Positions 9,298 to 64,000 of a DNA stretch of 64,000 nt are shown piece after piece (the first letter of the stretch is position 1; every line of letters starts with the position of its first letter). A program made the translations under genes and the position numbers. A model generated the notes under the pieces. It saw only the letters and a program-made list of their open reading frames with translations, was not told where the DNA came from and made no database searches. Origin of the DNA: a virus. The stretch lies in IMG/VR virus record IMGVR_UViG_3300025889_000073, positions 1 to 64,000 of that record. One strand, 5' to 3'.

Positions 9298-11568
9298 ATG
9301 AAATTTTTAGATTTTCTGGAAGAACAGAAAGAAAAACACGGTGTATTTGCGTTTGGGAGAATGAATCCCATAACTATAGGCCATGAAAAATTAGTACAAA
9401 AAGTCAAAGATATAGCTACAGCAGTAGGTGGTTCACACCACATAGTATTATCACATACACAAGATTCTAAAAAAAATCCCTTATCAGCTAAGCAGAAAGT
9501 GCAACACGCAAAAAAAGCATTTCCTGACACAAACTTTACACATTCAACAAAAGAATCTCCCAATTTCCTAACACAAGCAGCTGACCTGCACAAGAAGGGT
9601 ATAACACATCTTCATGCGGTCGGTGGCTCTGACCGTGTTGCAGAATTTAAAAAGACATTGAACAAATACAATGGCACACATCAAGGTGCATTGTTCAATT
9701 TCAAAAAAATTACTGTACATTCTTCTGGAGAAAGAGACCCGGATGCAGAAGGAGTGGGTGGTATGTCTGCTTCGAAAATGCGTGGCCATGCTACAGCTGG
9801 AGATTTTGAATCTTTCCGTAAAGGAGTTCCTTCTACCATGGGACATTCTCATGCTAAATCATTATATAACGATGTTCGTAAAGGATTAGGACTCCGTGAA
9901 GATATTGATTTAATTTTTGAAGATTTGTTGACAGAAGGGGTGCATGACCAGTCCATTTTTAAAGCAGTATTTCTTGCAGGTGGACCAGGCTCAGGTAAAG
10001 ATTATGTCTTGGACAATACACTTGAAGGCCATGGCCTGATAGAAATTAATTCGGATAAAGCATTAGAGTTTTTAATGGACAAAAAAGGTCTCGACAAAAA
10101 GATGCCATCATCCGAAAAAGAAATGAGAGATGATGTTCGTAGTCAAGCTAAAATTATGACTGAGTTAAAACAAAAGCTTGCTTTAACCGGTCGAAACGGA
10201 ATAATCATTAATGGAACAGGTGATGACCTTGAAAAAATAACTAGGATTAAAAGTGGTTTAGAAAAACTTGGTTATGATACAGCAATGATTATGGTCAACA
10301 CTTCTGATGATGTTTCATCACAAAGAAATATTGAACGTGGCCAACGTGGTGGTAGAACTGTTCCGGAAACAATTCGTAAAGAAAAGTGGGATGCATCACA
10401 AGATGCGAGAACAGAGTATGCAAAAATGTTTGGTGCTAACTACCACGAATTTGATAACTCTGAAGATTTGAGACAAGCTTCACCCGATATAGTGAAGCAA
10501 AAGAAAATGGAATTGTTGGATATATTTAAAACAATGAAAGAGTTTGTCTCCTCTCCTCCAAACTCAGACATTGCAAAAGAATGGGTTGCTTCTGAATTAC
10601 AAAAGAAAGATACTCTACCTGTTGCTCAATCGGGCACAGAAAATGTGCCTCCACACGATTCTAAGGCTGCTGAGCAAGCCAGAGAATTAGGATTACAATA
10701 TTACGGTTTTGGTAGATATGGTAAAAATGGTAAAGTAACACACAGGTCAGTACATGATAACCTTGTTTCTGTGGAAGAAATTCAATCAGCCTCAGATAAA
10801 CAAAAAGTTAAAAAAGAAGAAATAGATTTAGAATTTGAAAATTTATTTAATGAGTCTTATCAGTTGTCGGATTCTTCCGCACTAAATCTATTATTATTAG
10901 GAAATTCAATAGACGAAAGAGACTTTCAGATTGGTGAAGAAAAACAAATTAAACTTCTAAAAGATAAATCTGGAAGACCTAGGATTTTTATGTTAAGGTC
11001 TGCTGCTGCAAAAGAATCTCACACCCATGGCGGCGAAGTCATAAAATATAAGAATGGTTATGTTATTAAACTTAAAGAGGAGAATGAAAATGACAAACTG
11101 GTTGAAAAACTTATTTTTGAGAATTTTAGGAAAAAGAAAAGAGGAAACGAAGTACGAAATGGAACCTCCGGTGATGGAGGAGAATTGGCCATTTCCGAAA
11201 GCAACTTCGTTACCGACGGAGATAATCGAATCACCAACGCCGTCACAAGAAAAACCATTACCCTCCAAGAAGCAAGGAACCGCCAAAAAACCAAAGCAGC
11301 AACCAGCATCGAAAAACACCAAAACAACTGGACGGGGCAGGTCCAAGAAAGCATCGACAAAGGAATAGAACCTGGCCTTTCGATGTCAACGGGTGGTGAG
11401 AATTTAACCAGAACTTCAGGTAAAAACAAACAATTGAAAAAGCCATTTGAAGAAGCAATTGGTTCAGATGGTTCAATTGTTACATCTATCTCCGATAAAA
11501 AGGAAGATGAACTGAAGAAATCAGGAATCAATTTACAATCATTTAGAGCAAAGAGACACATAGGATGA
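9298..11568 (+). CDS. Fusion of HIGH-family cytidylyltransferase-like domain and P-loop (zeta-toxin/Pnk-like) kinase; probable head protein
   Basis: FGRMNPITIGH, GSDR, MSASKMR; LAGGPGSGKD, INSD, RNIERG; N-terminal MKFLDFLEE. Confidence 0.8.
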   Translation: MKFLDFLEEQKEKHGVFAFGRMNPITIGHEKLVQKVKDIATAVGGSHHIVLSHTQDSKKNPLSAKQKVQHAKKAFPDTNFTHSTKESPNFLTQAADLHKKGITHLHAVGGSDRVAEFKKTLNKYNGTHQGALFNFKKITVHSSGERDPDAEGVGGMSASKMRGHATAGDFESFRKGVPSTMGHSHAKSLYNDVRKGLGLREDIDLIFEDLLTEGVHDQSIFKAVFLAGGPGSGKDYVLDNTLEGHGLIEINSDKALEFLMDKKGLDKKMPSSEKEMRDDVRSQAKIMTELKQKLALTGRNGIIINGTGDDLEKITRIKSGLEKLGYDTAMIMVNTSDDVSSQRNIERGQRGGRTVPETIRKEKWDASQDARTEYAKMFGANYHEFDNSEDLRQASPDIVKQKKMELLDIFKTMKEFVSSPPNSDIAKEWVASELQKKDTLPVAQSGTENVPPHDSKAAEQARELGLQYYGFGRYGKNGKVTHRSVHDNLVSVEEIQSASDKQKVKKEEIDLEFENLFNESYQLSDSSALNLLLLGNSIDERDFQIGEEKQIKLLKDKSGRPRIFMLRSAAAKESHTHGGEVIKYKNGYVIKLKEENENDKLVEKLIFENFRKKKRGNEVRNGTSGDGGELAISESNFVTDGDNRITNAVTRKTITLQEARNRQKTKAATSIEKHQNNWTGQVQESIDKGIEPGLSMSTGGENLTRTSGKNKQLKKPFEEAIGSDGSIVTSISDKKEDELKKSGINLQSFRAKRHIG
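11090..11368 (+). CDS. Candidate overprinted small protein in an alternative frame (MTNWLKNLFLRILGK...)
   Basis: GAGGAG at 11077-11082, 7 nt before ATG 11090; amphipathic N-terminus and Pro/Lys-rich tail. Confidence 0.5.
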   Translation: MTNWLKNLFLRILGKRKEETKYEMEPPVMEENWPFPKATSLPTEIIESPTPSQEKPLPSKKQGTAKKPKQQPASKNTKTTGRGRSKKASTKE

Positions 11569-22336: not shown

Positions 22337-24145
22337 ATGGAAGAAATTGTACATGGTATCAAGGTAGACTATAATCGGGACACATTGTTTGATAAATTAG
22401 GACTGACAAGACTAAAAGAAAGTTACATGAAAGATGATGAAGTTTCACCACAAGAAAGATTTGCCTTTGTTTCAAGCTCGTTTGGTTCCACTCCGGAACA
22501 CGCCCAACGACTTTACGAATACAGTAGTAAACATTGGCTTAGTTATTCCACTCCTATCCTTAGTTACGGTCGTAGCAAGCGTGGGTTGCCTATATCTTGC
22601 TTCCTCCCGTATCTCGACGATTCTGCGGAAGGATTAGTTGATACTTTATCAGAAGTAAATTGGCTTTCAATGTTGGGAGGAGGTGTTGGAATTGGAATCG
22701 GTATTAGATCTGCTGATGATAAGTCTGTGGGGGTCATGCCTCACCTTAGGACTTACGATGCTAGTTCGCTTGCTTACAGACAGGGACGTACTCGTAGAGG
22801 TAGTTATGCTTGTTATCTTGATATCAGCCACCCTGACATACTCATATTTTTGGAAATGCGAAAGCCAACCGGCGACCAAAATATGCGTTGTCTAAACTTG
22901 CATCATGGAATTAATATTACTGATGATTTTATGAATTTAATTGAAAGGTGTATGATTGATAAAGATGCAGATGACACATGGGAACTAAAAGACCCGCACA
23001 CAGGTGAGGTGCGTGACAGCGTGCCTGCTAGAGAATTGTGGCAACGTATCTTAGAGATTCGTATGCAAACCGGCGAACCTTATTTACATTTCATTGACAC
23101 CAGTAATCGTGCAATGCCTGAGTTTCAAAAGAAATTAGGACTAAGCATCAAACAATCGAACTTGTGTTCTGAAATTATTTTACCTACAGACAAGAAGCGT
23201 ACTGCTGTTTGCTGTCTTTCATCCGTTAACTTGGAGTATTTTGATGAATGGTCTAAAGAGAAACTTTTTCTTAGAGATGTTGCTGAAATGCTTGACAATG
23301 TTCTTCAGCATTTTATTGATAATGCTCCTTCTGCTGTTAAGCGTGCCGTATATTCTGCTCGTAATGAACGCAGCATTGGTATCGGTGCTCTTGGATTCCA
23401 CGCATACTTACAAAAACAAAACCTGCCATGGGAATCAGCACAAGCAACAGGTTTAAACATAAAAATGTTCAAACATATAAGGGAGAATTTAGATGTCGCA
23501 AACAAGGAACTCGGTGCTGAGAGAGGTGAAGCACTCGATGCAGTCGGCACTGGTCTTAGGTTTAGTCATGTTATGGCAATTGCTCCCAATGCTTCTTCTT
23601 CCATCCTTATGGGCAATACCTCTCCTAGTATTGAACCTTATCGTGCTAATGCTTATCGCCAAGATACATTATCAGGAGCATATCTTAATAAAAACCGATA
23701 CTTAGATAAAATTATAAAGGAAAAATGTGATGGTGACACTAAGTTGGACTATAACGAAATCTGGTCAAGTATTATCGCAAACGATGGAAGCGTTCAACAT
23801 CTTGAATTCTTGGACCAATGGACCAAAGATGTATTTAAAACATCCATGGAAATTGACCAAAGATGGATTGTTGACCATGCAGCTCACAGGCAACAATATA
23901 TCGACCAAGCACAATCGGTCAACCTATTCTTTAGGCCTGATGTAAACATTCTATTGCTCCATGCCGTACACTTTCAGGCATGGAAACAAGGCCTCAAAAC
24001 ACTTTACTACTGCCGTTCAGAAAAACTAGCAAAGGCTGATAAAGTTGCTAAAAAAATTGAACGTGAAGTGATTAAAGAAATTGATTTGTCAGCACTAACC
24101 AATCTATCGGAAGGTGAAGAAATTTGTCTTGCTTGTGAAGGTTGA
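22337..24145 (+). CDS. nrdA: Ribonucleotide reductase class Ia alpha subunit (no ATP cone)
   Basis: PISC, SNLCSEI, APNASSS, KTLYY, C-terminal CLACEG. Confidence 0.96.
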   Translation: MEEIVHGIKVDYNRDTLFDKLGLTRLKESYMKDDEVSPQERFAFVSSSFGSTPEHAQRLYEYSSKHWLSYSTPILSYGRSKRGLPISCFLPYLDDSAEGLVDTLSEVNWLSMLGGGVGIGIGIRSADDKSVGVMPHLRTYDASSLAYRQGRTRRGSYACYLDISHPDILIFLEMRKPTGDQNMRCLNLHHGINITDDFMNLIERCMIDKDADDTWELKDPHTGEVRDSVPARELWQRILEIRMQTGEPYLHFIDTSNRAMPEFQKKLGLSIKQSNLCSEIILPTDKKRTAVCCLSSVNLEYFDEWSKEKLFLRDVAEMLDNVLQHFIDNAPSAVKRAVYSARNERSIGIGALGFHAYLQKQNLPWESAQATGLNIKMFKHIRENLDVANKELGAERGEALDAVGTGLRFSHVMAIAPNASSSILMGNTSPSIEPYRANAYRQDTLSGAYLNKNRYLDKIIKEKCDGDTKLDYNEIWSSIIANDGSVQHLEFLDQWTKDVFKTSMEIDQRWIVDHAAHRQQYIDQAQSVNLFFRPDVNILLLHAVHFQAWKQGLKTLYYCRSEKLAKADKVAKKIEREVIKEIDLSALTNLSEGEEICLACEG

Positions 24146-24972
24146 TTATGATTGAAAAATTAAATATGAAGGTCAATGCGACCGAGTTGAGAACTACAAT
24201 ACCAAAATTGAAAGAGATTGGACCTATGGTTTTTCAAGGTTCCGAATTTGGTTACAAAAATTTTGGTGGTTGGAATCTACAAAGTAGAACGGGTGATTAC
24301 AAAGATGGTTTTCAAGTAGGTGTTGAAAAGTGTTGGAGAAATGGAAAATTTGACTATAGACTTGCTAAATTCTTAAACTATTCTCACGCTTTCGAACACA
24401 ACAATAAAACTCAAGCTTGTTTAAAACCTTACGCCACAATACTAAATTTTTTAGAATCGGAAGGTTTTTATCCAAGAAGAGCTAGAGTTACCTGTTTAAA
24501 AGCAGGTTCTAATAGCATCATACACAGAGATGCGCCTGATGATGTTTATATGTGTAGAATACATATACCTATCATAACAAACGACCAATGTTATCATTGG
24601 ATGGATTATAAAGGTGACCAAAAATATTTTCATATGCCAGCTGACGGAAGTGTTTTCATCTTACCTGTAAATGTGATGCATCGAATTACGAATCAATCCA
24701 AACACGACAGATATCATATGATTGTTGACGTTTATGATACGAAAAAGGTCACGAAAAATTTTAAGTATGATGGTGATATAAATTTTTTAATAAATGAAGC
24801 CAAAGAATATAGGAAAATAATTGATTCAACACCATTACCATGGTATTGGAAAATTGTTTATTCGATTGGTAGACAAATTGTTGTAACCAAATTTAAAATG
24901 GAACAAAAAATGATTCATGCTTCTTATAAACTAAATTCTACAAAATTTGTTCGTTCTACAATATCAAAATGA
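24142..24972 (+). CDS. 2OG-Fe(II) oxygenase, aspartyl/asparaginyl beta-hydroxylase (AspH/LpxO-like) family
   Basis: HRD...RIHIPIITN...H.ITN...RYHMIVD facial-triad pattern. Confidence 0.7.
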   Translation: MIMIEKLNMKVNATELRTTIPKLKEIGPMVFQGSEFGYKNFGGWNLQSRTGDYKDGFQVGVEKCWRNGKFDYRLAKFLNYSHAFEHNNKTQACLKPYATILNFLESEGFYPRRARVTCLKAGSNSIIHRDAPDDVYMCRIHIPIITNDQCYHWMDYKGDQKYFHMPADGSVFILPVNVMHRITNQSKHDRYHMIVDVYDTKKVTKNFKYDGDINFLINEAKEYRKIIDSTPLPWYWKIVYSIGRQIVVTKFKMEQKMIHASYKLNSTKFVRSTISK

Positions 24973-25760
24973 ATATAAGAAATAATTCATTTGTAAAAAC
25001 ATATATCACATCAACATATACAGTATCACAAGTTGTGATAATGACACAACTAATGTTGTCGTTCATTGGTATAATTTATATTGCAACAAATTTTTCTTGG
25101 GCGTATGTCGGATTGTGTTTTTTTTGGTACGCTGCTTTATTGTGGTGGTCACATCATATAGGATTACATAGATATTTTTCACACAATTCTTTTAATGTGA
25201 ATAAATTTTGGCATATTGTATTGTGTTACACCAGTTGTTTAATTTCTTTTGGTTCTCCATTTTCATATTCTCTAATGCACAGAGCGCACCATAAACATTC
25301 AGATACAGATAAAGATACTCATGCTCCTACGAAGATTGGATTTTTAAGAGTCATGTTTTTCAATTGGAAATTGGAAAATGTTAATCTAATGGACAGAAAT
25401 AAAAAAATAGATAACTGGGCAATCAATGCTCACACCTTCTATACACTAATTATTTTGTTGTTTTATGCACTACTACATACAATTGACACAGGACTTGCTT
25501 TCACTTATAATATAGGTGTTACGGTAGCATTATTTGGTGTTGCTTATGTTAATGTATTTTCTCACATCAAAAATCCTTTAAACTATAGGAATTTTGATAC
25601 TGACGATTTATCATCTAATAATTTATTTGTTGGTATGGTGGGTGGTGAATGGCACAACAACCATCACAATAATCCTCAAAAATGGAATCAAAGAGTTAAG
25701 TGGTGGGAATTAGATATACCTGCTCAAATTATAAAATTAATTAAAAAGGAACAACAATGA
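24969..25760 (+). CDS. Membrane fatty-acid desaturase (delta-9 / DesC-like)
   Basis: His boxes HRYFSH, HRAHH, HNNHH; TM helices; WWELD. Confidence 0.9.
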   Translation: MNIRNNSFVKTYITSTYTVSQVVIMTQLMLSFIGIIYIATNFSWAYVGLCFFWYAALLWWSHHIGLHRYFSHNSFNVNKFWHIVLCYTSCLISFGSPFSYSLMHRAHHKHSDTDKDTHAPTKIGFLRVMFFNWKLENVNLMDRNKKIDNWAINAHTFYTLIILLFYALLHTIDTGLAFTYNIGVTVALFGVAYVNVFSHIKNPLNYRNFDTDDLSSNNLFVGMVGGEWHNNHHNNPQKWNQRVKWWELDIPAQIIKLIKKEQQ

Positions 25761-26009: not shown

Positions 26010-26999
26010 ATGGTAAAAAATAAATCTGACATTACATCTGAAAGAGATGCGTTTAAACCATTTCATTATCCATGGGCATATGAGGCGTGGTTAAAACACG
26101 AACAAGCCCATTGGTTACATAGTGAAGTGCCTATGCTTGAAGATGTAAAAGACTGGAAGAATAAACTAACAAAAGAACAAAAACAATTCCTGACACACAT
26201 CTTCCGTTTCTTTACACAAGGTGATATTGATGTTGCAGGTGGTTATGTAAAGAACTATCTGCCTTACTTTGCACAACCAGAAGTTCGTATGATGCTTCTT
26301 GGCTTTGCTGCAAGAGAGGCATTACACATCGCTGCATACTCACATCTTATTGAAACTCTTGGTCTGCCAGATACCACATACAATCAATTCTTGGAGTATC
26401 AACAGATGCGTGATAAACACGATTATGTGAAGGAGTTGTCATCACAGAATTCTACAAAAGAAAATACAGCCAAACATATTGCTGTGTTCTCGGCATTTAC
26501 TGAAGGTATGCAGTTGTTCTCATCATTCATTATGTTACTGAACTTCCCACGACATGGAATGATGAAAGGTATGGGACAGATTGTTACATGGTCTATTGTT
26601 GATGAAACCATGCACACAGAAAACATGATTAAGTTGTTTAGGACTTATATACAAGAGAACAATGAGATTTGGAATGATGAACTCAAATCTGAAATCTATG
26701 TTGTTGCTGAGAAGATGGTTGAACTAGAAGATAAATTTATTGACCTTGCTTTTGAAATGGGTGAAATGCCAAACCTAACATCAGAAGAAGTGAAACGATA
26801 TATTCGATATATTGCTGACCGTAGATTAATTTCTATGGGTATGAAAGGCATATTTAAGGTTAAGAAGAATCCTTTGCCATGGGTTGAAGAAATGATTAAT
26901 GCGCCAATTCACGGTAACTTCTTTGAGAATCGTGTTACTGATTACGCTAAAGGTGCATTAAAAGGTTCATGGGAAGATGTATGGGGGAAAGCAGCATGA
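26010..26999 (+). CDS. nrdB: Ribonucleotide reductase class Ia beta subunit
   Basis: [38 protein letters not shown]. Confidence 0.96.
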
Positions 27000-28201
27000 A
27001 GAAAAGAGATTACACACAAGAAACAGTTAATAAGTTAAGAGGTAGTATACAGATTGAACATACTTTGGCCAAACATGGCGCCAGACACCTTAGAGAATTG
27101 CTGCAACGTGAACCTTACATTAATACACTTGGTGCATACAATGGCCAGCAGGCAGTACAACACGCAAAGGCAGGCCTGAAAGCAATTTATCTATCTGGTT
27201 GGCAAGTTGCTGCAGCACAAAACTCAGCACTACAAACTTATCCCGACCAATCATTGTATCCAGTTGATTCTGTACCTAAGGTTGTAAAGGCTATCAATAA
27301 TGCATTACGCCGTGCTGACCAAATTGAATGGTCTGAAGGTAAATTGTCAACATATTATTATTTGCCTATTGTCGCCGATGCTGAAGCAGGTTTTGGTGGT
27401 GCATTGAATGTCTATGAACTGATGATGGCCATGATTGAAGCAGGCGCATCTGGCGTACACTTTGAAGACCAATTGTCGAGTGAAAAGAAATGTGGCCATT
27501 TGGGTGGTAAGGTCCTTGTACCTACAAGTCAAATGATTCGAACACTTAATGCTGCACGTTTGGCTGCTGACGTAGCGGGTGTTGATACTGTTATTATGGC
27601 TCGTACTGATGCGGAAGCAGCGACACTTATTACCAGTAACCACGACCCATTAGACAAGGATTTTATCATCGATGAAAGGACTGAAGAAGGTTTTTACAAA
27701 TTTAAAAATGGCATTGATGCTTGTATTAGCAGAGGTCTTGCTTTTGCCCCTTACGCTGATCTCTTATGGTTTGAAACTAGCACACCTGATCTGGCACAAG
27801 CTAAAAAATTCGCCAATGCTATACACGCTAAGTTTCCAGACCAAATGCTTGCTTACAATTGCAGTCCTAGTTTTAATTGGCGCAAGTTTTTATCTATAGA
27901 TGAGTGTGAAACATTCCAACGTGAATTAGGAGAGCTTGGTTATAAGTTCCAGTTCATTACACTAGCAGGTTTTCATAATGTTAATCTTGCCACATTTGAA
28001 CTAGCAGAAGCATACAAACAACGTGGAATGGCAGGTTATGCTGAGATGCAAGAACGTGAGTTTGCAGCACAAGAACGTGGTTTCACTACAGTTAAACATC
28101 AACGTGAAGTTGGTGTTGGTTACTTTGACATTATTAGCGAGGCAGTTGGTGCCAAATCTACAGTAGCAAATAAAACATCAACTGAAGCGGAACAGTTTTA
28201 A
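26996..28201 (+). CDS. aceA: Isocitrate lyase
   Basis: Catalytic KKCGH signature, [34 protein letters not shown]; ATGA overlap with nrdB. Confidence 0.95.
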
Positions 28202-40778: not shown

Positions 40779-40854
40779 GCCGGTTTAGCTCATTTGGTAG
40801 AGCAACGCACTTGTAATGCGTAGGTGGTCAGTTCGAATCCGACAACCGGCACCA
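40779..40854 (+). tRNA. tRNA-Thr(UGU)
   Basis: Cloverleaf; loop CT-TGT-AA; TTCGAATC; encoded CCA. Confidence 0.95.
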
Positions 40855-40932
40855 TATTAAAGGAGAAATAAAAATGACAATTGAAGAATATTGGAAGTGG
40901 ATACACGAAAACGTACAATAAAAATTTGTTAT

Positions 40933-41017
40933 GCGACTGTGGCGGAATAGGTAGACGCAACAGACTTAAAATCTGTCGGCTTAGGCCGTGCCGGTTCGAT
41001 TCCGGCCAGTCGTACCA
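40933..41017 (+). tRNA. tRNA-Leu(UAA)
   Basis: Long variable arm; loop CT-TAA-AA; encoded CCA. Confidence 0.95.
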
Positions 41018-41020
41018 ATT

Positions 41021-41097
41021 CTGACCATAGTTCAGCTGGATAGAACAACAGCCTTCTAAGCTGTGGGTCGGGGGTTCGAATCCCTCTGGTCAGGCCA
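41021..41097 (+). tRNA. tRNA-Arg(UCU)
   Basis: CTGACCA/TGGTCAG acceptor stem; loop CT-TCT-AA; CCA. Confidence 0.95.
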
Positions 41098-41099
41098 AT

Positions 41100-41126
41100 T
41101 CCTCGATAGCTCAGTTGGTAGAGCAG
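41100..41126 (+). pseudogene. Truncated tRNA (5' acceptor strand plus D-arm only)
   Basis: TCCTCGA-TA-GCTCAGTTGGTAGAGC-AG, running directly into tRNA-Pro. Confidence 0.7.
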
Positions 41127-41127
41127 T

Positions 41128-41204
<77 letters not shown>

Positions 41205-41208
41205 TTAT

Positions 41209-41283
41209 GTGAATGTGGTCGAATGGTTAGGCACCGGATTGCAAATCCGGACTATGCAGGTTCGAATCCTGTCATTCACTCCA
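41209..41283 (+). tRNA. tRNA-Cys(GCA)
   Basis: Loop TT-GCA-AA; U discriminator; CCA. Confidence 0.95.
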
Positions 41284-41284
41284 G

Positions 41285-41360
<76 letters not shown>

Positions 41361-59192: not shown

Positions 59193-59858
59193 ATGAATTT
59201 TTGTCATGTTAAATTGGATGAGTTGAATTTCGAAATGGAATCAGAAACCACGGAAAGGGGTAGAGTCTATAAAGTTCCAGGAGGAGGACTCTACCCTTCT
59301 ATCACAACAGTATTATCATCATACAATAAAAAAGCTCTGATGGAATGGCGCAAAAGAGTTGGTGAAGAAGAAGCTAATCGTGTAGCTAAAGCTGCATCTG
59401 GTCGTGGAACCAGATTACACAATACGGTTGAGAAATATCTCCTTAATGAGTTGACTGACGTTAAAATAAAAACTATGATGCCTGACATTAAGGAAATGTT
59501 TTTCGATATGCGTAAAATCATTGATGAGAATATTGGTGATATTTATGGTATTGAACAACCACTTTATTCCCACAAATTAAGACTCGCAGGCCGTTGTGAT
59601 TGTATTGCGGAATGGAATGGACAGTTATCAATCGTGGACTGGAAGACCGCAAGTAGAGCCAAAGACAAAGAACATATAAAGAACTATTTTATGCAGGCTA
59701 CGGCTTATGCAGAAATGTTTGAAGAACTGACCGGAAAGGCAATAGACACAATTGTTGTGGCGATAGCTGTGCAAAGTGAATCTCCGCAGGTGTTCATTGA
59801 GAGTAAGTATAAATACCTTCTCCCTTTAAATGAATATAACGAAAGGTACCAGAGATGA
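59193..59858 (+). CDS. Cas4-like / PD-(D/E)xK exonuclease
   Basis: YPSITTVL, RGTRLH, AGRCDCI, IVDWKT, YFMQATAY. Confidence 0.85.
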   Translation: MNFCHVKLDELNFEMESETTERGRVYKVPGGGLYPSITTVLSSYNKKALMEWRKRVGEEEANRVAKAASGRGTRLHNTVEKYLLNELTDVKIKTMMPDIKEMFFDMRKIIDENIGDIYGIEQPLYSHKLRLAGRCDCIAEWNGQLSIVDWKTASRAKDKEHIKNYFMQATAYAEMFEELTGKAIDTIVVAIAVQSESPQVFIESKYKYLLPLNEYNERYQR

Positions 59859-60217
59859 AAAGTATACTGGCAGCGCTTTTGATTATGTTGCCGGTGATTG
59901 GTTTTGCTGAACCAAAAAAGAAAGAAGAATCTAAGCCGTTAATGATGAATGTGGAAACAATGTGCAATGATTCATCATTATTAGATTTGGTTATGTTTAA
60001 ATATGGTGAAATGCCTGTTATAAAAATGGAATCAATTCGTAGTTTAACTAAAGGAGATGATACTACGTCATTTGTTTCAGTTTTATTTGTTAATCAAAAA
60101 ACAAGAAGTTGGACTTTGATTGAAGAACGAGGACCCTTATATTGTGTTATTGGTGTTGGAGTGAACATTCGAATTTTTTCTGATAAACAATCTGAGGAAC
60201 AAACTAAATATTATTGA
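59855..60217 (+). CDS. Secreted hypothetical protein
   Basis: Signal peptide; N..T.SWTLIE...CV.G.G. Confidence 0.55.
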   Translation: MKSILAALLIMLPVIGFAEPKKKEESKPLMMNVETMCNDSSLLDLVMFKYGEMPVIKMESIRSLTKGDDTTSFVSVLFVNQKTRSWTLIEERGPLYCVIGVGVNIRIFSDKQSEEQTKYY

Positions 60218-60220
60218 TAT

Positions 60221-60570
60221 ATTGCTGTATGAAGCAATGAGAAAGGTGTTCTGGACGGCGGTTCGATTCCGCCCACCTCCACCATAAGCACACTGGCCTT
60301 TGGGTGTAGTCCGTAAGGATCAAGAGATAATTTCAAAGACCCCATATAACCAAGTTAGTGTGCTTTTGATGGGGGTGTACAGGTTTCGACAGGGCAATGA
60401 GTAACAGAGTGGACAGCAGGGCAATGTGAAAGCCCTTAGGGTTGAGACTACTCGGCCGAAGAAGCAAAAAAAGTAAACGCAAACGATGAAGTTTACGCAC
60501 TAGCTGCCTAATAAAAGGTAAGCAGGAGTTTTTGGAGGTTTTGACTTGGCAACAGAACAAAACCTCCTTT
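60221..60570 (+). ncRNA. ssrA: Circularly permuted (two-piece) tmRNA
   Basis: 3' piece (T-arm GGTTCGATTCC, CACCTCCACCA) ends at 60284, before the 5' piece GGGGGTG...TTCGAC at 60371; G3.U70 pair; tag ANDEVYALAA* at 60479-60511. Confidence 0.92.
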
Positions 60571-60599
60571 CGGAAAAGTATTGAAAAGAGTGAAAAGAT

Positions 60600-60929
60600 A
60601 TGATTGGTATAGATTTAACTAGAATTTCTAGGTTTGAAGGTATTGATTTAGAACGCCTTGGTATGAAATTAGGTCATAAATTAGATAGTCCAAAAACTGC
60701 TGCTAAAGTTTGGGCCTGTCTTGAGGCTTTAACAAAAGCTGAAGGAAAAAAGTTTAACCCCAAAAATATAAAGTTACTTTTTAACGTAGCCTGTGCGCCA
60801 ACGGTAAAAGGTGTTGACCCTAATCCTATGGTTTATTCTGACCGTGTATTATCTGGTGAATATATATTATCTTTAACCCATGAAGGCGACTATGTTGCCG
60901 TTGTTGCTTTGCGTAAGGAAATGAAATGA
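60600..60929 (+). CDS. acpS: Holo-ACP synthase (AcpS-type phosphopantetheinyl transferase)
   Basis: IGIDL..ISRF, W(AC)LEALTKA, LSLTHEGDYVAVV. Confidence 0.75.
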   Translation: MIGIDLTRISRFEGIDLERLGMKLGHKLDSPKTAAKVWACLEALTKAEGKKFNPKNIKLLFNVACAPTVKGVDPNPMVYSDRVLSGEYILSLTHEGDYVAVVALRKEMK

Positions 60930-61189
60930 CAAGAGAAGAAGTGATTAATCAAATAAGTGAACTTTTTAATTCCAAATATGGCATTTTGTTGACAGATTAT
61001 CCTGAAGATACTGATGTTACACTATTCGCTGAAATCAATGATAAATTAGATTCTATTGAATTTATGAATTTTATTTTTGATGTTGAGGATATGTTTGAGA
61101 TTAGAGATGCTGGTGACAATGGTGCACCAACAAAATTAGGTGAATTATACGATATGTTCGAAAAAGCTATTTTGGAAAAACAAAAATGA
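60926..61189 (+). CDS. Acyl carrier protein
   Basis: 87 aa, acidic; LDS(43)IEFMNFIFDVEDMFEI helix-II motif. Confidence 0.8.
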   Translation: MTREEVINQISELFNSKYGILLTDYPEDTDVTLFAEINDKLDSIEFMNFIFDVEDMFEIRDAGDNGAPTKLGELYDMFEKAILEKQK

Positions 61190-61971
61190 AAAATCTTTTT
61201 AGGGGAACATCGAAAAATTCTCAAATAGTCATAGTGTCTCAAGTTATATTGGGAACATTATCGGGAATATATTTCTTGTTTACCGGTGCATATAGTTATA
61301 TTTGGTATGCATTTATAATGTTTTTCGTTTTCAATCATTTTTTCCACAACGTAGCACTACATAGATATTTTTCACATAAAGCTTTTAAGACAAACAAATT
61401 TTGGCATATTTTTATGGCCATGTTTTCACCATTAGCTTCTGCGGGTTCTCCTTATGGTTATGCCATGGCACATAGAACTCATCATATGTATTCTGATGGA
61501 GAAAAAGACCCAACGAATTTAAATCAAGGCCTTTTGAACGTGGCTTTTTTTCGATGGAACTTAAAACACGTTCCATTACCAATTATGAGAAGTTTGGGTA
61601 ATGATAAGTGGATTATGTTATCACATAATTACTATGTCGGTATAATTTTACTTTTCTGGTTGACATTGATGATTATTGATGTTAGACTGGCCTTGATGTA
61701 TAATTTGGCCGGCCTGTTTATGTTTTTTGAATATTGTGTTATTAATATTGTCAATCATTCTGGATTGCCTTTTTCTTATCGAAATCACGACACCAAAGAC
61801 AATACAACAAATGATTTATTTACAGGACTATTTTGTGGTGACTGGCACAATAATCATCACAATAAGGCCACCAATTGGAATCAAAGGGAGAACTGGTGGG
61901 AGTTTGATATACCCGCACAAATGATAAAGATGATTAAATATGATGATGCAGATGATAAAGCATATAATTAA
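61186..61971 (+). CDS. Membrane fatty-acid desaturase (paralog of 24969-25760)
   Basis: HRYFSH, HRTHH, HNNHH boxes; WWEFD. Confidence 0.9.
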   Translation: MKNLFRGTSKNSQIVIVSQVILGTLSGIYFLFTGAYSYIWYAFIMFFVFNHFFHNVALHRYFSHKAFKTNKFWHIFMAMFSPLASAGSPYGYAMAHRTHHMYSDGEKDPTNLNQGLLNVAFFRWNLKHVPLPIMRSLGNDKWIMLSHNYYVGIILLFWLTLMIIDVRLALMYNLAGLFMFFEYCVINIVNHSGLPFSYRNHDTKDNTTNDLFTGLFCGDWHNNHHNKATNWNQRENWWEFDIPAQMIKMIKYDDADDKAYN

Positions 61972-62083
61972 TCGAATATATCGCCTTTTGGGTGGTGAAT
62001 ATGTTTGGTGGCAAACTTTAGGATATTTAATCATACACTCATTAATTTTTTATCAAGTTGTGTACTTGGAATATATTAAATGA
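61940..62083 (+). CDS. Small membrane peptide (not in ORF track)
   Basis: About 47 aa, ...YVWWQTLGYLIIHSLIFYQVVY...; ATGA-coupled to the ketosynthase. Confidence 0.45.
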   Translation: MMMQMIKHIINRIYRLLGGEYVWWQTLGYLIIHSLIFYQVVYLEYIK

Positions 62084-63273
62084 ACAGACGAGTTGTTATT
62101 ACTGGTATTGGATGTGTCACACCAATTGGTGTTTCTTATACTGAAGTCAAAGATTCTTTGATGACCGGTAAATCTGGTATCAAATATTATGAAGACATAA
62201 AAGCAAATCTTGGTCGAGTTGAGTTTGATATTGATTCACAAATTGAACCGTTAGACCAAACTATCACAGATAGAATTTCCAGATTTGCATGGTATTCTTA
62301 TTTGAAATGTATAGAAGATGCCAAAGTTACAAGTGAAGATGTTGATGGAATTTTCTTTGGTGTTGGTTTTTGTGGCAGTTATACGATTGAGAACACTTTT
62401 CCAGAATATTTAAAAAATCGCCGGGCAAGACCAAACACTTTAGTTAATATTTGTCCTAATTCTCCTGCTTGTTTCATTGCACTCAAGGAAAAAATTACAG
62501 GCATAAATTTTACATATAATAACGCTTGTGCTTCATCAACTTTAGCTTTGGGTGAAGCATATGAAAAAATTTCAAATGGCCAATGTGATGGTATGATTGT
62601 CGGCGGCACAGAATCCTCCGTTAACGATTATGGCATCACAACGTGGCACGGAATGAGAGCTATATCACCAAAAGATGAAGGTCCAACAGCGTGTAGACCT
62701 TTTTCTAAAGATAGAACTGGTGTTGTTGTGGCTGAAGGTTGTGCTGTTTTTTATTTGGAAGAATATGAAAAAGCTAAAGCTCGTGGCGCTAAAATTTATG
62801 CTGAGATATTTGGATATGGAACATCATGGGGCACAGAGTCTATGACCAAACCTAGTGTCGAAGGTGAAAAGAGGGCTATATTAAAAGCTATAGATAAAAT
62901 ACCACAAGGCAGAAAGGTAACCTTTATATCAGCTCATGGTACAGCTACTCCTACTGGTGATATGGTTGAACTACAAGCTATTAGTGAATGTTTTGGAGAG
63001 GAAGTTGAGGAAATTGCAATCACCTCGACAAAATCTCTACACGGTCATACACTAGGTGCCGCAGGGGCAATTGAAACTTTAGGATGTATTGCCGTTTTAG
63101 AAGAAGATAGAATTATACCAAATTGGCATTTAGGTGAACACGACCCGAATACGCCAGAAAATGTATTCTTACCCACTAAACCTATTGACAAAAAGCAGGA
63201 TTTGTGTTTTAATAACTCATTTGCTTTTGGTGGCAGCAATGCCGTTTTAGTTCTTGGTAAATGTTTGGAGTGA
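62080..63273 (+). CDS. fabF: Beta-ketoacyl-ACP synthase (FabF/FabB family)
   Basis: RRVVITGIG, ACASS (Cys), AHGTAT and GHTLGAAG (His, His), NSFAFGGSNA. Confidence 0.93.
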   Translation: MNRRVVITGIGCVTPIGVSYTEVKDSLMTGKSGIKYYEDIKANLGRVEFDIDSQIEPLDQTITDRISRFAWYSYLKCIEDAKVTSEDVDGIFFGVGFCGSYTIENTFPEYLKNRRARPNTLVNICPNSPACFIALKEKITGINFTYNNACASSTLALGEAYEKISNGQCDGMIVGGTESSVNDYGITTWHGMRAISPKDEGPTACRPFSKDRTGVVVAEGCAVFYLEEYEKAKARGAKIYAEIFGYGTSWGTESMTKPSVEGEKRAILKAIDKIPQGRKVTFISAHGTATPTGDMVELQAISECFGEEVEEIAITSTKSLHGHTLGAAGAIETLGCIAVLEEDRIIPNWHLGEHDPNTPENVFLPTKPIDKKQDLCFNNSFAFGGSNAVLVLGKCLE

Positions 63274-63276
63274 AAA

Positions 63277-63501
63277 ATGCCGTTTTCGGTAAAACCAATT
63301 GAAGAAACTATCACACAGGTAGAACAACAGGTATCAAATATTAACATCGAAAAGTTCACAAATTCGGAAAAATTTGATGTACTTTTTGTCATTATGATTG
63401 TTTTGTTGATGTTTGCTTTTAGTCGTTTTACAGCAGTTATATTTAAACTTATAGGTGCTGTAATTATAGGCCTTGGTGTATATACATTGTTTTTAACATG
63501 A
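63277..63501 (+). CDS. Small two-TM membrane protein
   Basis: Hydrophobic C-terminal half; GGAG SD. Confidence 0.55.
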   Translation: MPFSVKPIEETITQVEQQVSNINIEKFTNSEKFDVLFVIMIVLLMFAFSRFTAVIFKLIGAVIIGLGVYTLFLT

Positions 63502-63608
63502 AAGTCTTAATCAGTAAATATCGTAATCATTGGTTGTCTCCTTATACAAACTACTAAATAACAGACCAGGTAAACTGGTACACACACAAAACACACAAGG
63601 ATAAAACT

Positions 63609-63872
63609 ATGTCAAATTTAACGCCTTTTGAAATTCGACTAGAGTTACTGAAAATGGCTCAAACGATGGTCGAACAAGATTATTATGCAAAACGTGAAGT
63701 CATCGCAAATCAATATGCAACAGATTGTGATGATGCAAAACTCCAGGGTAAACAACCACCTACACATCCTGGATTTCCTCCATACCCATCAGAAGCAGAA
63801 GTCATTGCGAAAGCACAGACTTTGAATACCTTTGTTTCTAATCTTCCTTTAGAATCTAAGAAGAAGCCTTGA
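63609..63872 (+). CDS. Conserved T4-like hypothetical protein
   Basis: TPFEIRLELLKMA...YPSEAEVIAKA..LN.FVS; CTAAATA late-like promoter upstream. Confidence 0.65.
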   Translation: MSNLTPFEIRLELLKMAQTMVEQDYYAKREVIANQYATDCDDAKLQGKQPPTHPGFPPYPSEAEVIAKAQTLNTFVSNLPLESKKKP

Positions 63873-63878
63873 TGAACC

Positions 63879-63903
63879 AGCCGGCCTTGTGCCGGCTTTT
63901 TTA
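63879..63903 (+). terminator. Rho-independent terminator
   Basis: AGCCGGC/GCCGGCT stem followed by a T-tract. Confidence 0.85.
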
Positions 63904-64000
63904 TAGGAAAAACAATGTTAAAATACCTTTCAATATCACTTATTATTGTGATGTCGATGATTATTTTAGAAGAACCAAAAAGTACACAAATAGGAAACTC

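Follow-up and report, generated by a model that had tools for sequence, protein, structure and literature searches.

The first 64 kb of the IMG/VR virus record IMGVR_UViG_3300025889_000073 (171,728 bp in total), hereafter the window, carry four enzyme genes in the same orientation (60600-63273, + strand). They encode an AcpS-type 4'-phosphopantetheinyl transferase (PPTase; 109 aa), an acyl carrier protein (ACP; 87 aa), a membrane fatty-acid desaturase (261 aa) and a beta-ketoacyl-ACP synthase (ketosynthase, KS; 397 aa). Across related phages the invariant core of this cassette is the ACP together with the KS, and the AcpS is accessory. We hold with moderate confidence that the cassette is a conserved phage auxiliary lipid module with a private ACP, a non-housekeeping KS and a membrane-directed product, and we infer that its most likely effect is to give the infected cell longer, unsaturated fatty chains. 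Of the four genes, two are already in print; the carrier-centred module apparently is not. Phage lipid auxiliary genes have so far been treated as lone, fluidity-tuning desaturases. The recurring unit here is a private carrier and a condensing enzyme, to which desaturases and in some cases a PPTase are added, and it appears to be kin to bacterial specialised-lipid modules, not to housekeeping fatty-acid synthesis. If this is true, phages of abundant freshwater bacteria would redirect host fatty-acid flux to their own carrier, a new layer of metabolic takeover, and the cassettes would offer very small, possibly orthogonal AcpS, ACP and KS parts (AcpS of 98-113 aa) for engineering.

Four enzyme genes in a T4-like phage genome

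CheckV rates the 171.7-kb record as 100% complete, and IMG/VR classes it as linear, with end repeats absent. The window holds a T4-like gene set, including ribonucleotide reductase, ThyX, virion proteins, a PD-(D/E)XK exonuclease and six tRNAs, and its GC content (~35-36%) and GC skew are uniform throughout. A first-pass annotation, made from the sequence alone, had proposed a phage-borne series of translationally coupled genes for an AcpS, an ACP, a desaturase, a short peptide and a KS, followed by a protein with two transmembrane segments. We confirmed all six open reading frames (ORFs) at 60600-63501 on the + strand, with the coordinates as first given, and all three ATGA start/stop overlaps can be read directly from the sequence (AcpS/ACP, 60926-60929; ACP/desaturase, 61186-61189; 47-aa ORF/KS, 62080-62083). 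The proposed identities of the AcpS, ACP, desaturase and KS also hold, based on profiles, structure models and catalytic residues. For the small proteins, which are too divergent for single-sequence Pfam calls, homologues were gathered from related phage contigs and combined into family profiles.

On its own, the AcpS protein (60600-60929, +; pI 9.1) gives a marginal Pfam match (E 1.2e-3, below the cut-off) and is below the NCBIfam cut-off too. A profile of five phage AcpS homologues matches the solved AcpS structures 5xuk, 3qmn and 1f80 in the PDB, with E from 1.6e-11 to 3e-9. The AlphaFold2 (AF2) model has a pLDDT of 88 and a pTM of 0.84, and all 50 of its listed Foldseek PDB matches are AcpS or PPT domains of fatty-acid synthase (FAS), at TM-scores of 0.55-0.75. 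Asp5, Glu42 and Lys46 are invariant in seven homologues and lie inside segments aligned to solved AcpS; we take them to be the metal/CoA-site residues (the N-terminal Asp, and the Glu and Lys of the central helix). By profile, fold and conserved residues, the ORF is classed as an AcpS-type (group I) PPTase. It is a shortened form, as the proteins of this lineage (98-113 aa) are without two segments of a 130-aa phage homologue.

The ACP (60926-61189, +) is small and strongly acidic (87 aa, pI 4.06). Neither hmmscan nor a six-frame search gave a match of the window protein to PF00550, although a few members of its family carry a precomputed PF00550 match, and its match to the NCBIfam ACP model (E 4.5e-6) is below cut-off. 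The family profile matches solved ACPs in the PDB (E 2.6e-8) and places Ser43 on their pantetheine serine, and NodF appears as a weak match of the same profile (1fh1, E 0.076). In the AF2 model (pLDDT 87.6) the protein is a helical bundle in which Ser43 starts helix 43-56 (helix II), and all 50 listed fold matches of this model are carrier proteins. K40, D42, S43 and E54 are invariant in 16 homologues, giving the motif K-x-D-S, and a five-residue insertion lies ahead of the Asp-Ser. The divergence that the first-pass annotation attributed to both the ACP and the AcpS is thus borne out. The ACP family comprises about 100 clusters at 90% identity, the longest contig of every cluster being at most 185 kb. 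Phage ACPs in general were already known (phrog_5934; PMC13573597).

The desaturase (61186-61971, +) passes PF00487 (42.3 bits vs a cut-off of 29.7; E 1e-10), and its profile matches only SCD1 in the PDB (4zyo and 4ymk, E 1e-18). The boxes HRYFSH, HRTHH and HNNHH are present together with H191. Across 16 sequences His59/64, His96/99/100, His191 and His221/224/225 are invariant, corresponding to HX4H, HX2HH and HX2HH plus the histidine of the fourth transmembrane segment. Homologues are annotated by JGI as stearoyl-CoA desaturase. These features assign the protein to the SCD1/DesC-type (delta-9 family) integral-membrane enzymes, with regiospecificity and substrate form only predicted. At about 245-265 aa the phage desaturases are short; they make up a loose group of mostly viral members, with named cellular relatives at most 30% identical. 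Among their best full-length plasmid matches is a Streptomyces polyyne cluster with the order thioesterase, FAAL, two desaturases, ACP, desaturase, hydrolase and rubredoxin. In our desaturase tree, a quick build with deep branches, the Streptomyces polyyne pair groups with cellular acyl-CoA desaturases, and the cassette desaturases fall in a separate, mostly viral group.

The 171.7-kb genome encodes two desaturases. The second SCD-type enzyme (24969-25760, +; 263 aa) is 41% identical to the cassette copy. Its gene is translationally coupled to one for an AspH/LpxO-family hydroxylase, and the pair (24142-25760, +) is inserted between nrdA and nrdB, with an ACP absent nearby.

The KS (62080-63273, +) carries PF00109 and PF02801. 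Its Cys-His-His triad is intact, as first described, and Cys150, His286, His323, Lys318 and Phe383 are invariant in 15 phage homologues. FabF is its closest solved and curated family. It scores 326 bits against TIGR03150 (NCBIfam fabF) vs a cut-off of 494, and all other NCBIfam KS models are below cut-off too. We therefore describe it as FabF-like and, on the phylogeny given below, as lying outside the housekeeping FabFs sampled, with its enzyme activity predicted. The first-pass annotation had also considered a type II polyketide synthase, in which a KS is joined by a chain-length factor. We reject this, since there is a single Cys-His-His KS and a second, chain-length-factor-like KS gene was not found among the neighbours with one KS profile.

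Six-frame Pfam searches of the whole 171.7 kb did not find FabD, adh_short_C2 (FabG-type), FabA/Z, an AMP-binding enzyme (PF00501; acyl-AMP ligase/acyl-ACP synthetase), a PlsC-type acyltransferase, Fer2, rubredoxin or a second ACP. A thioesterase was looked for among the cassette ORFs, and none was found there. As FabD, FabG and FabA/Z are absent from the genome, host enzymes must complete any cycle, in agreement with the first-pass annotation.

Conservation of the ACP-KS pair and phylogeny of the ketosynthase

A search of 5.8 billion proteins revealed a discrete KS clade at 42-97% identity, followed by a drop to bacterial proteins of at most 41% identity (37-41% for the bacterial relatives of the phage KS). 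The phage clade comprises about 25 lineages, with 41-97% identity, in T4-like and jumbo phages, and the contigs that bear it are phage-like (up to 166 kb among the matches of this search). In IMG/VR, a single-protein scan with the KS gave zero matches and an alignment-based scan was required; this profile scan recovered 152 viral KS relatives. INPHARED yielded zero relatives of the phage KS clade, which does not show absence from GenBank phages. The DNA match in that database is a chance 104-nt stretch, the KS protein matches are at most 39% identical and probably represent bacterial-like inserts or contaminants, and the desaturase match is a weak one to Pelagibacter phage Mosig.

We took a gene census of the loci with HMMs built from our own alignments. 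The ACP lies directly 5' of the KS in every phage-clade locus that covers the region upstream of the KS, and this ACP-KS order is kept in about 25 phage KS lineages, which speaks for selection of the genes as a unit. Between the two genes there are zero, one or three desaturases, and in one locus (L032) a desaturase follows the KS. The usual cassette site is between the PD-(D/E)XK exonuclease and a group formed by a SleB-like hydrolase, the late-transcription coactivator, gp59 and gp32. Other cassettes sit in different backbones, that of a 364-kb phage included. The window-like, L004/L012 and L023 lineages have the AcpS gene next to the cassette, and the L008/L030 type has it ~5 kb off. No PPTase was detectable in other large records, including the complete 364-kb phage with terminal repeats. 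The orthogonal carrier pair suggested by the first-pass annotation is therefore retained in respect of divergence, but not as an obligatory pairing, since PPTase-free relatives keep the ACP-desaturase-KS cassette.

Two of these architectures deserve mention in their own right. The 364-kb genome (G005, the IMG/VR record of L028; 364,404 bp, terminal repeats, 100% complete) has five further, scattered desaturase genes in addition to its ACP-desaturase-KS cassette. In the three-desaturase variants, the KS is directly followed (L013, 2877-3515; L037, 6149-6781) by a PF10118 'predicted metal-dependent hydrolase' (E 1.9e-34), which could supply the off-loading or tailoring step otherwise missing from this sub-lineage.

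Compared with a 97%-identical relative, the KS gene has 89 nucleotide differences and 10 amino-acid changes, and the desaturase gene has 55 and 8, respectively, a pattern that indicates purifying selection on both. The 47-aa hydrophobic ORF between the desaturase and KS genes (61940-62083, +) fills an insert of ~110 nt. Only the window and the 97%-identical L015/L016 have it, whereas the 81% relative L006 and the remaining cassettes lack it; wherever else a desaturase precedes the KS, its stop codon overlaps the start of the KS gene. This ORF has no family match, and it differs from its L015 counterpart by 8 nucleotides and 3 conservative amino-acid changes. The 74-aa ORF that follows the KS (63277-63501, +), with a hydrophobic C-terminal half, two likely transmembrane segments and a GRAVY of 0.95, occurs among relatives only in L015/L016 and gives only sub-threshold family matches. 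Thus the peptide and the two-transmembrane protein of the first-pass annotation exist as ORFs, but they are lineage-specific, and we reject both as core parts of the cassette because they are confined to 97%-identical relatives.

Phylogenetic analysis of 109 KS sequences recovers the 25 phage-clade KSs as monophyletic (SH-aLRT 100, stem 0.51). Together with their best bacterial matches they form a 99%-supported group that is apart from the housekeeping FabFs sampled, among them the FabF of the Pseudomonas fab operon (plsX-fabD-...-fabF locus). All four bacterial relatives whose context was inspected are ACP-KS pairs outside fab operons. In the Burkholderiaceae metagenome-assembled genome SCTK01000015 the arrangement is FeeM-ACP-KS-FeeM with MacB exporters; a second relative has hydrolase-ACP-KS and a third HAD-aminotransferase-ACP-KS-hydrolase-MFS; in Caballeronia sp. 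SBC2 (pSBC2-3), genes for a KAS III-domain protein, a methyltransferase and an FAD-dependent oxidoreductase are located ahead of the pair.

Like the phage pairs, these bacterial pairs lie outside fab operons and consist of a small ACP directly 5' of a FabF-like Cys-His-His KS; the housekeeping FAS serves for the other steps. Unlike them, the phage pairs are found beside SCD-type desaturases and sometimes an AcpS, whereas the bacterial ones lie beside FeeM, a KAS III-domain protein, an aminotransferase or a hydrolase; the bacterial ACPs are Pfam-recognisable and the phage ACP is more divergent. Given that the bacterial KS relatives are ACP-KS pairs outside fab operons, the phage core resembles, by analogy, bacterial modules that feed a dedicated acyl chain to a specialised pathway. 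Phage and bacterial pairs presumably follow the same logic as rhizobial NodF/NodE. The uncharacterised bacterial pairs in our collection (L097, L098 and L179-L181) look like a widespread 'starter-chain' module.

Possible function of the cassette

A pathway for the membrane-directed module can be proposed from the gene content, in which each biochemical step, the form of substrate that the desaturase uses and the eventual fate of the chain are predicted. The phage AcpS would convert apo-ACP to holo-ACP, and host FabD would malonylate the phage holo-ACP. The KS could then load an acyl chain from the host pool on Cys150 and condense it with malonyl-(phage)ACP, which would extend the chain by two carbons and at once shift it to the phage carrier. 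Because the genome is without an AMP-binding acyl-activating enzyme and FabD, the KS is the only phage-encoded loading route found. The 3-oxo product would be reduced by host FabG, FabZ and FabI. The desaturase, with host electron donors, would introduce a cis double bond, acting on the chain while it is still bound to the carrier or once it has passed to lipid. Finally, host acyltransferases would put the product in membrane lipid, which in the infected freshwater cell would become longer-chained and more unsaturated.

Several observations weigh against this scheme. A private priming enzyme cannot be essential, since the AcpS is missing in the complete 364-kb relative as well as in other large contigs. 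In the window (24969-25760) and in the 364-kb phage (five extra copies), desaturase paralogues lie apart from any ACP, and some ACP-KS phage contigs show zero desaturases; thus the desaturase may act independently of the carrier. The bacterial KS relatives feed specialised products, not bulk membrane lipid, which favours a dedicated product over plain membrane remodelling. An acyltransferase or thioesterase that would reveal the destination of the chain was not found, the thioesterase having been looked for in the cassette ORFs only. Action of the desaturase on ACP-bound chains would fit the gene order and the tandem desaturases, but the scattered paralogues and the phylogeny argue against it.

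The genes could instead be independent boosters of host lipid synthesis, which we regard as rather unlikely. The KS would then be an extra FabF working on host AcpP (e.g., C16:1 to C18:1), the ACP would enlarge the carrier pool, and the desaturase, as a delta-9 enzyme, would act on acyl-lipid or acyl-CoA as cyanophage viral fatty-acid desaturases (vFADs) do. The net effect would be homeoviscous (cold) adaptation without a private carrier pathway. FabF being the nearest solved and curated family of the KS fits this view, as do the desaturase paralogues away from an ACP here and in the 364-kb relative, the relatives that dispense with AcpS, and the viral desaturases that act alone in cyanophages (PMC5776448) and cryopeg phages (PMC7300359). 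Judging by the record names, the samples also seem to be metagenomes of freshwater lakes, where the literature puts phages of this kind. However, the KS clade lies outside the sampled housekeeping FabFs, and the bacterial KSs with which it groups are each paired with an ACP of their own. In the phage clade the ACP and KS are never seen apart, with a fixed gene order and fixed overlaps. The Pfam PP-binding model fails to recognise the divergent ACP, which has the five-residue insertion before Asp-Ser, and several lineages carry a PPTase.

A third explanation shares the private ACP-KS pair with the module that we prefer, but has it supply a special chain for a dedicated, non-membrane product, the chain being desaturated while tethered as in polyyne and alkyne pathways. 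Its fate could be a signal, a toxin or defence compound, a change of lipid A or of the surface that blocks superinfection, or an acylated phage or host protein. The bacterial KS relatives are suggestive here, as they occur in specialised-lipid clusters (FeeM; KAS III-domain protein with methyltransferase and FAD oxidoreductase; aminotransferase with hydrolase). One to three tandem desaturases directly follow the ACP in phages (L013 and L037), comparable to the ACP-dependent desaturase triad of polyyne clusters (PMC9828172), and the desaturase has one of its best full-length plasmid matches in the Streptomyces polyyne cluster. Yet a thioesterase, GNAT/FeeM, a condensation enzyme and PlsC were not found in the cassette or, for those searched there, in the genome; neither an acyl-AMP ligase nor rubredoxin was found in the genome; the phage desaturases are apart from the polyyne pair in the tree; and this phage has a single cassette desaturase. 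Overall, we consider a dedicated product distinctly unlikely. A bolder and still unlikely proposal is that many freshwater phages, T4-like and jumbo, run a thiotemplated pathway of their own, with a KS-loaded ACP, on-carrier desaturation (by a single desaturase or up to three in tandem) and an unusual polyene- or alkyne-like non-membrane product, which would serve superinfection exclusion, lysis control, signalling or protein acylation.

The first-pass annotation had drawn its analogy from JamB and alkyne synthesis. Like JamABC/TtuABC and the cay/pgn polyyne clusters, whose desaturases act on ACP-bound chains (PMC9828172; bioRxiv 10.1101/291195), the phage cassette has a dedicated ACP beside one to three SCD1-fold desaturases. 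Those systems rely on an acyl-AMP ligase for loading, a thioesterase for release and rubredoxin; the ligase and rubredoxin are absent from the phage genome and the thioesterase from the cassette, where the KS stands in the place of the ligase. Membership in the JamB/polyyne type is rejected, as PF00501 is absent and the desaturase falls outside that group in the tree.

It is very improbable that the cassette is an assembly chimera, or freshly captured and decaying host DNA with no role in infection. The linear class without end repeats in IMG/VR would allow it, and fabF, acpP and fabG in predicted prophages may be host flanks (PMC8224337). Against this stand the uniform GC content and skew of the window, the recurrence of the same cassette at one backbone site across many assemblies made independently from different samples, the intact catalytic residues and the signs of purifying selection. 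Moreover, in a comparison with 185,579 prokaryote species, each represented by a single genome, the best cellular KSs are 32-38% identical and none exceeds 38%. We reject a chimera or recent host capture on the even GC and skew and on this comparison, and the genome, CheckV-complete and with a T4-like backbone, carries the cassette as phage DNA. The fabG-acpP-fabF genes of predicted roseobacter prophages, in bacterial operon order (PMC8224337), are a different thing from the phage ACP-KS module.

The closest published report lists 'fabF, stearoyl-CoA desaturase' as unique to the freshwater pelagimyophages of the PMP-D group, or 'fonsimyophages' (Zaragoza-Solas et al. 2020, mSystems, PMC7029224). 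Our phage is similar in being a T4-like freshwater phage of the pelagimyophage/Melnitz type, with an AspH-like gene, a two-piece tmRNA and a GC content of ~35% in common. It differs in genome size (171.7 vs 144.8 kb), in GC content (about 36% vs 31%) and in having radical-SAM genes, which PMP-D does not. That paper gives the matter one sentence, in which the ACP, AcpS, operon architecture, spread and KS phylogeny are unmentioned, and we liken the PMP-D fabF to our KS by gene name. The first-pass suggestion of an undescribed operon accordingly stands for the ACP/AcpS module, which was not found in print, but not for fabF and the stearoyl-CoA desaturase, listed in 2020; no description of the AcpS-ACP-desaturase-KS module was found in the full-text literature. 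Cyanophage vFADs, a precedent for viral desaturases that alter membrane lipids, were shown by expression in yeast to be delta-9, DesC-like desaturases (PMC5776448), and cryopeg-brine phages carry arrays of fatty-acid desaturase genes (PMC7300359). Like these enzymes (Roitman 2017; Zhong 2020), the cassette desaturase is an SCD/DesC-type His-box membrane protein of a kind proposed to alter fluidity and occurring in multiple copies per phage. Unlike them, described without a carrier, ketosynthase or PPTase, it is translationally coupled and lies between a private ACP and a KS. The cassette is thus less exotic than first proposed, as alkyne chemistry, an obligatory orthogonal pair and a peptide partner are unsupported, and it is richer than its one-line published mention.

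Transcription unit, neighbouring genes and other viral cassettes

Downstream from the 74-aa ORF is a gene for an 87-aa protein (63609-63872, +) with no family match, whose homologues (cluster c10) recur 3' of the KS in loci L006, L015, L023 and L024. It is the final gene ahead of an intrinsic-terminator-like hairpin (63879-63897, +; 7 pairs, 6 of them G-C) followed by a T run. This hairpin ranks first among the terminator-like sites in 59800-64000, where there are 9 such sites vs 2.2 expected, and is the probable 3' end of the transcription unit. Judged from these sequence features, the unit probably spans ~60.6 to 63.9 kb, the 87-aa ORF included.

Directly 5' of the cassette we identified a two-piece, circularly permuted tmRNA gene (60192-60602, +) with the tag ANDEVYALAA. 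It matches the Rfam models tmRNA_permuted (133 bits) and beta_tmRNA (102.5 bits), both above gathering. Two-piece tmRNAs have been described for Melnitz-like phages and pelagimyophages (PMC9004378). In those phages the tmRNA gene is located just 5' of the transcription coactivator, whereas here the lipid cassette intervenes. Clues to the host diverge, as the tmRNA scores best as beta_tmRNA, while the literature puts related freshwater phages on Fonsibacter.

Elsewhere in the window, six tRNA genes (Thr, Leu, Arg, Pro, Cys and Met) are clustered at 40779-41360 (+), a set that could help to assign the host. A full-length isocitrate lyase gene (Pfam ICL, E 1.8e-101), an unusual auxiliary gene for a phage, directly follows nrdB (26969-28201, +). 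Another gene (9298-11568, +) encodes a 756-aa fusion of a cytidyltransferase-like N-terminus (phrog_3041) and a zeta-toxin/AAA_33 kinase-like domain.

Other arrangements of KS and desaturase genes were seen among the IMG/VR loci. In L061 (4992-10091), L093 (5001-8624), L056, L059 and L064, a more distant viral KS (26-33% identical) precedes two to five tandem SCD-type desaturases, and a recognisable ACP is absent beside these arrays; L061 and L093 also have a radical-SAM-like gene upstream. The arrays probably match the published cryopeg-brine phages with five desaturase copies. Loci L082 (1626-5843) and L090 (918-5855) combine a divergent KS with a halogenase-like flavin-dependent protein (GGGAAGW motif), one or two desaturases and a protein of ~200 aa. 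Their KS is placed on a very long branch of the tree, and the two loci constitute a separate viral lipid-tailoring cassette.

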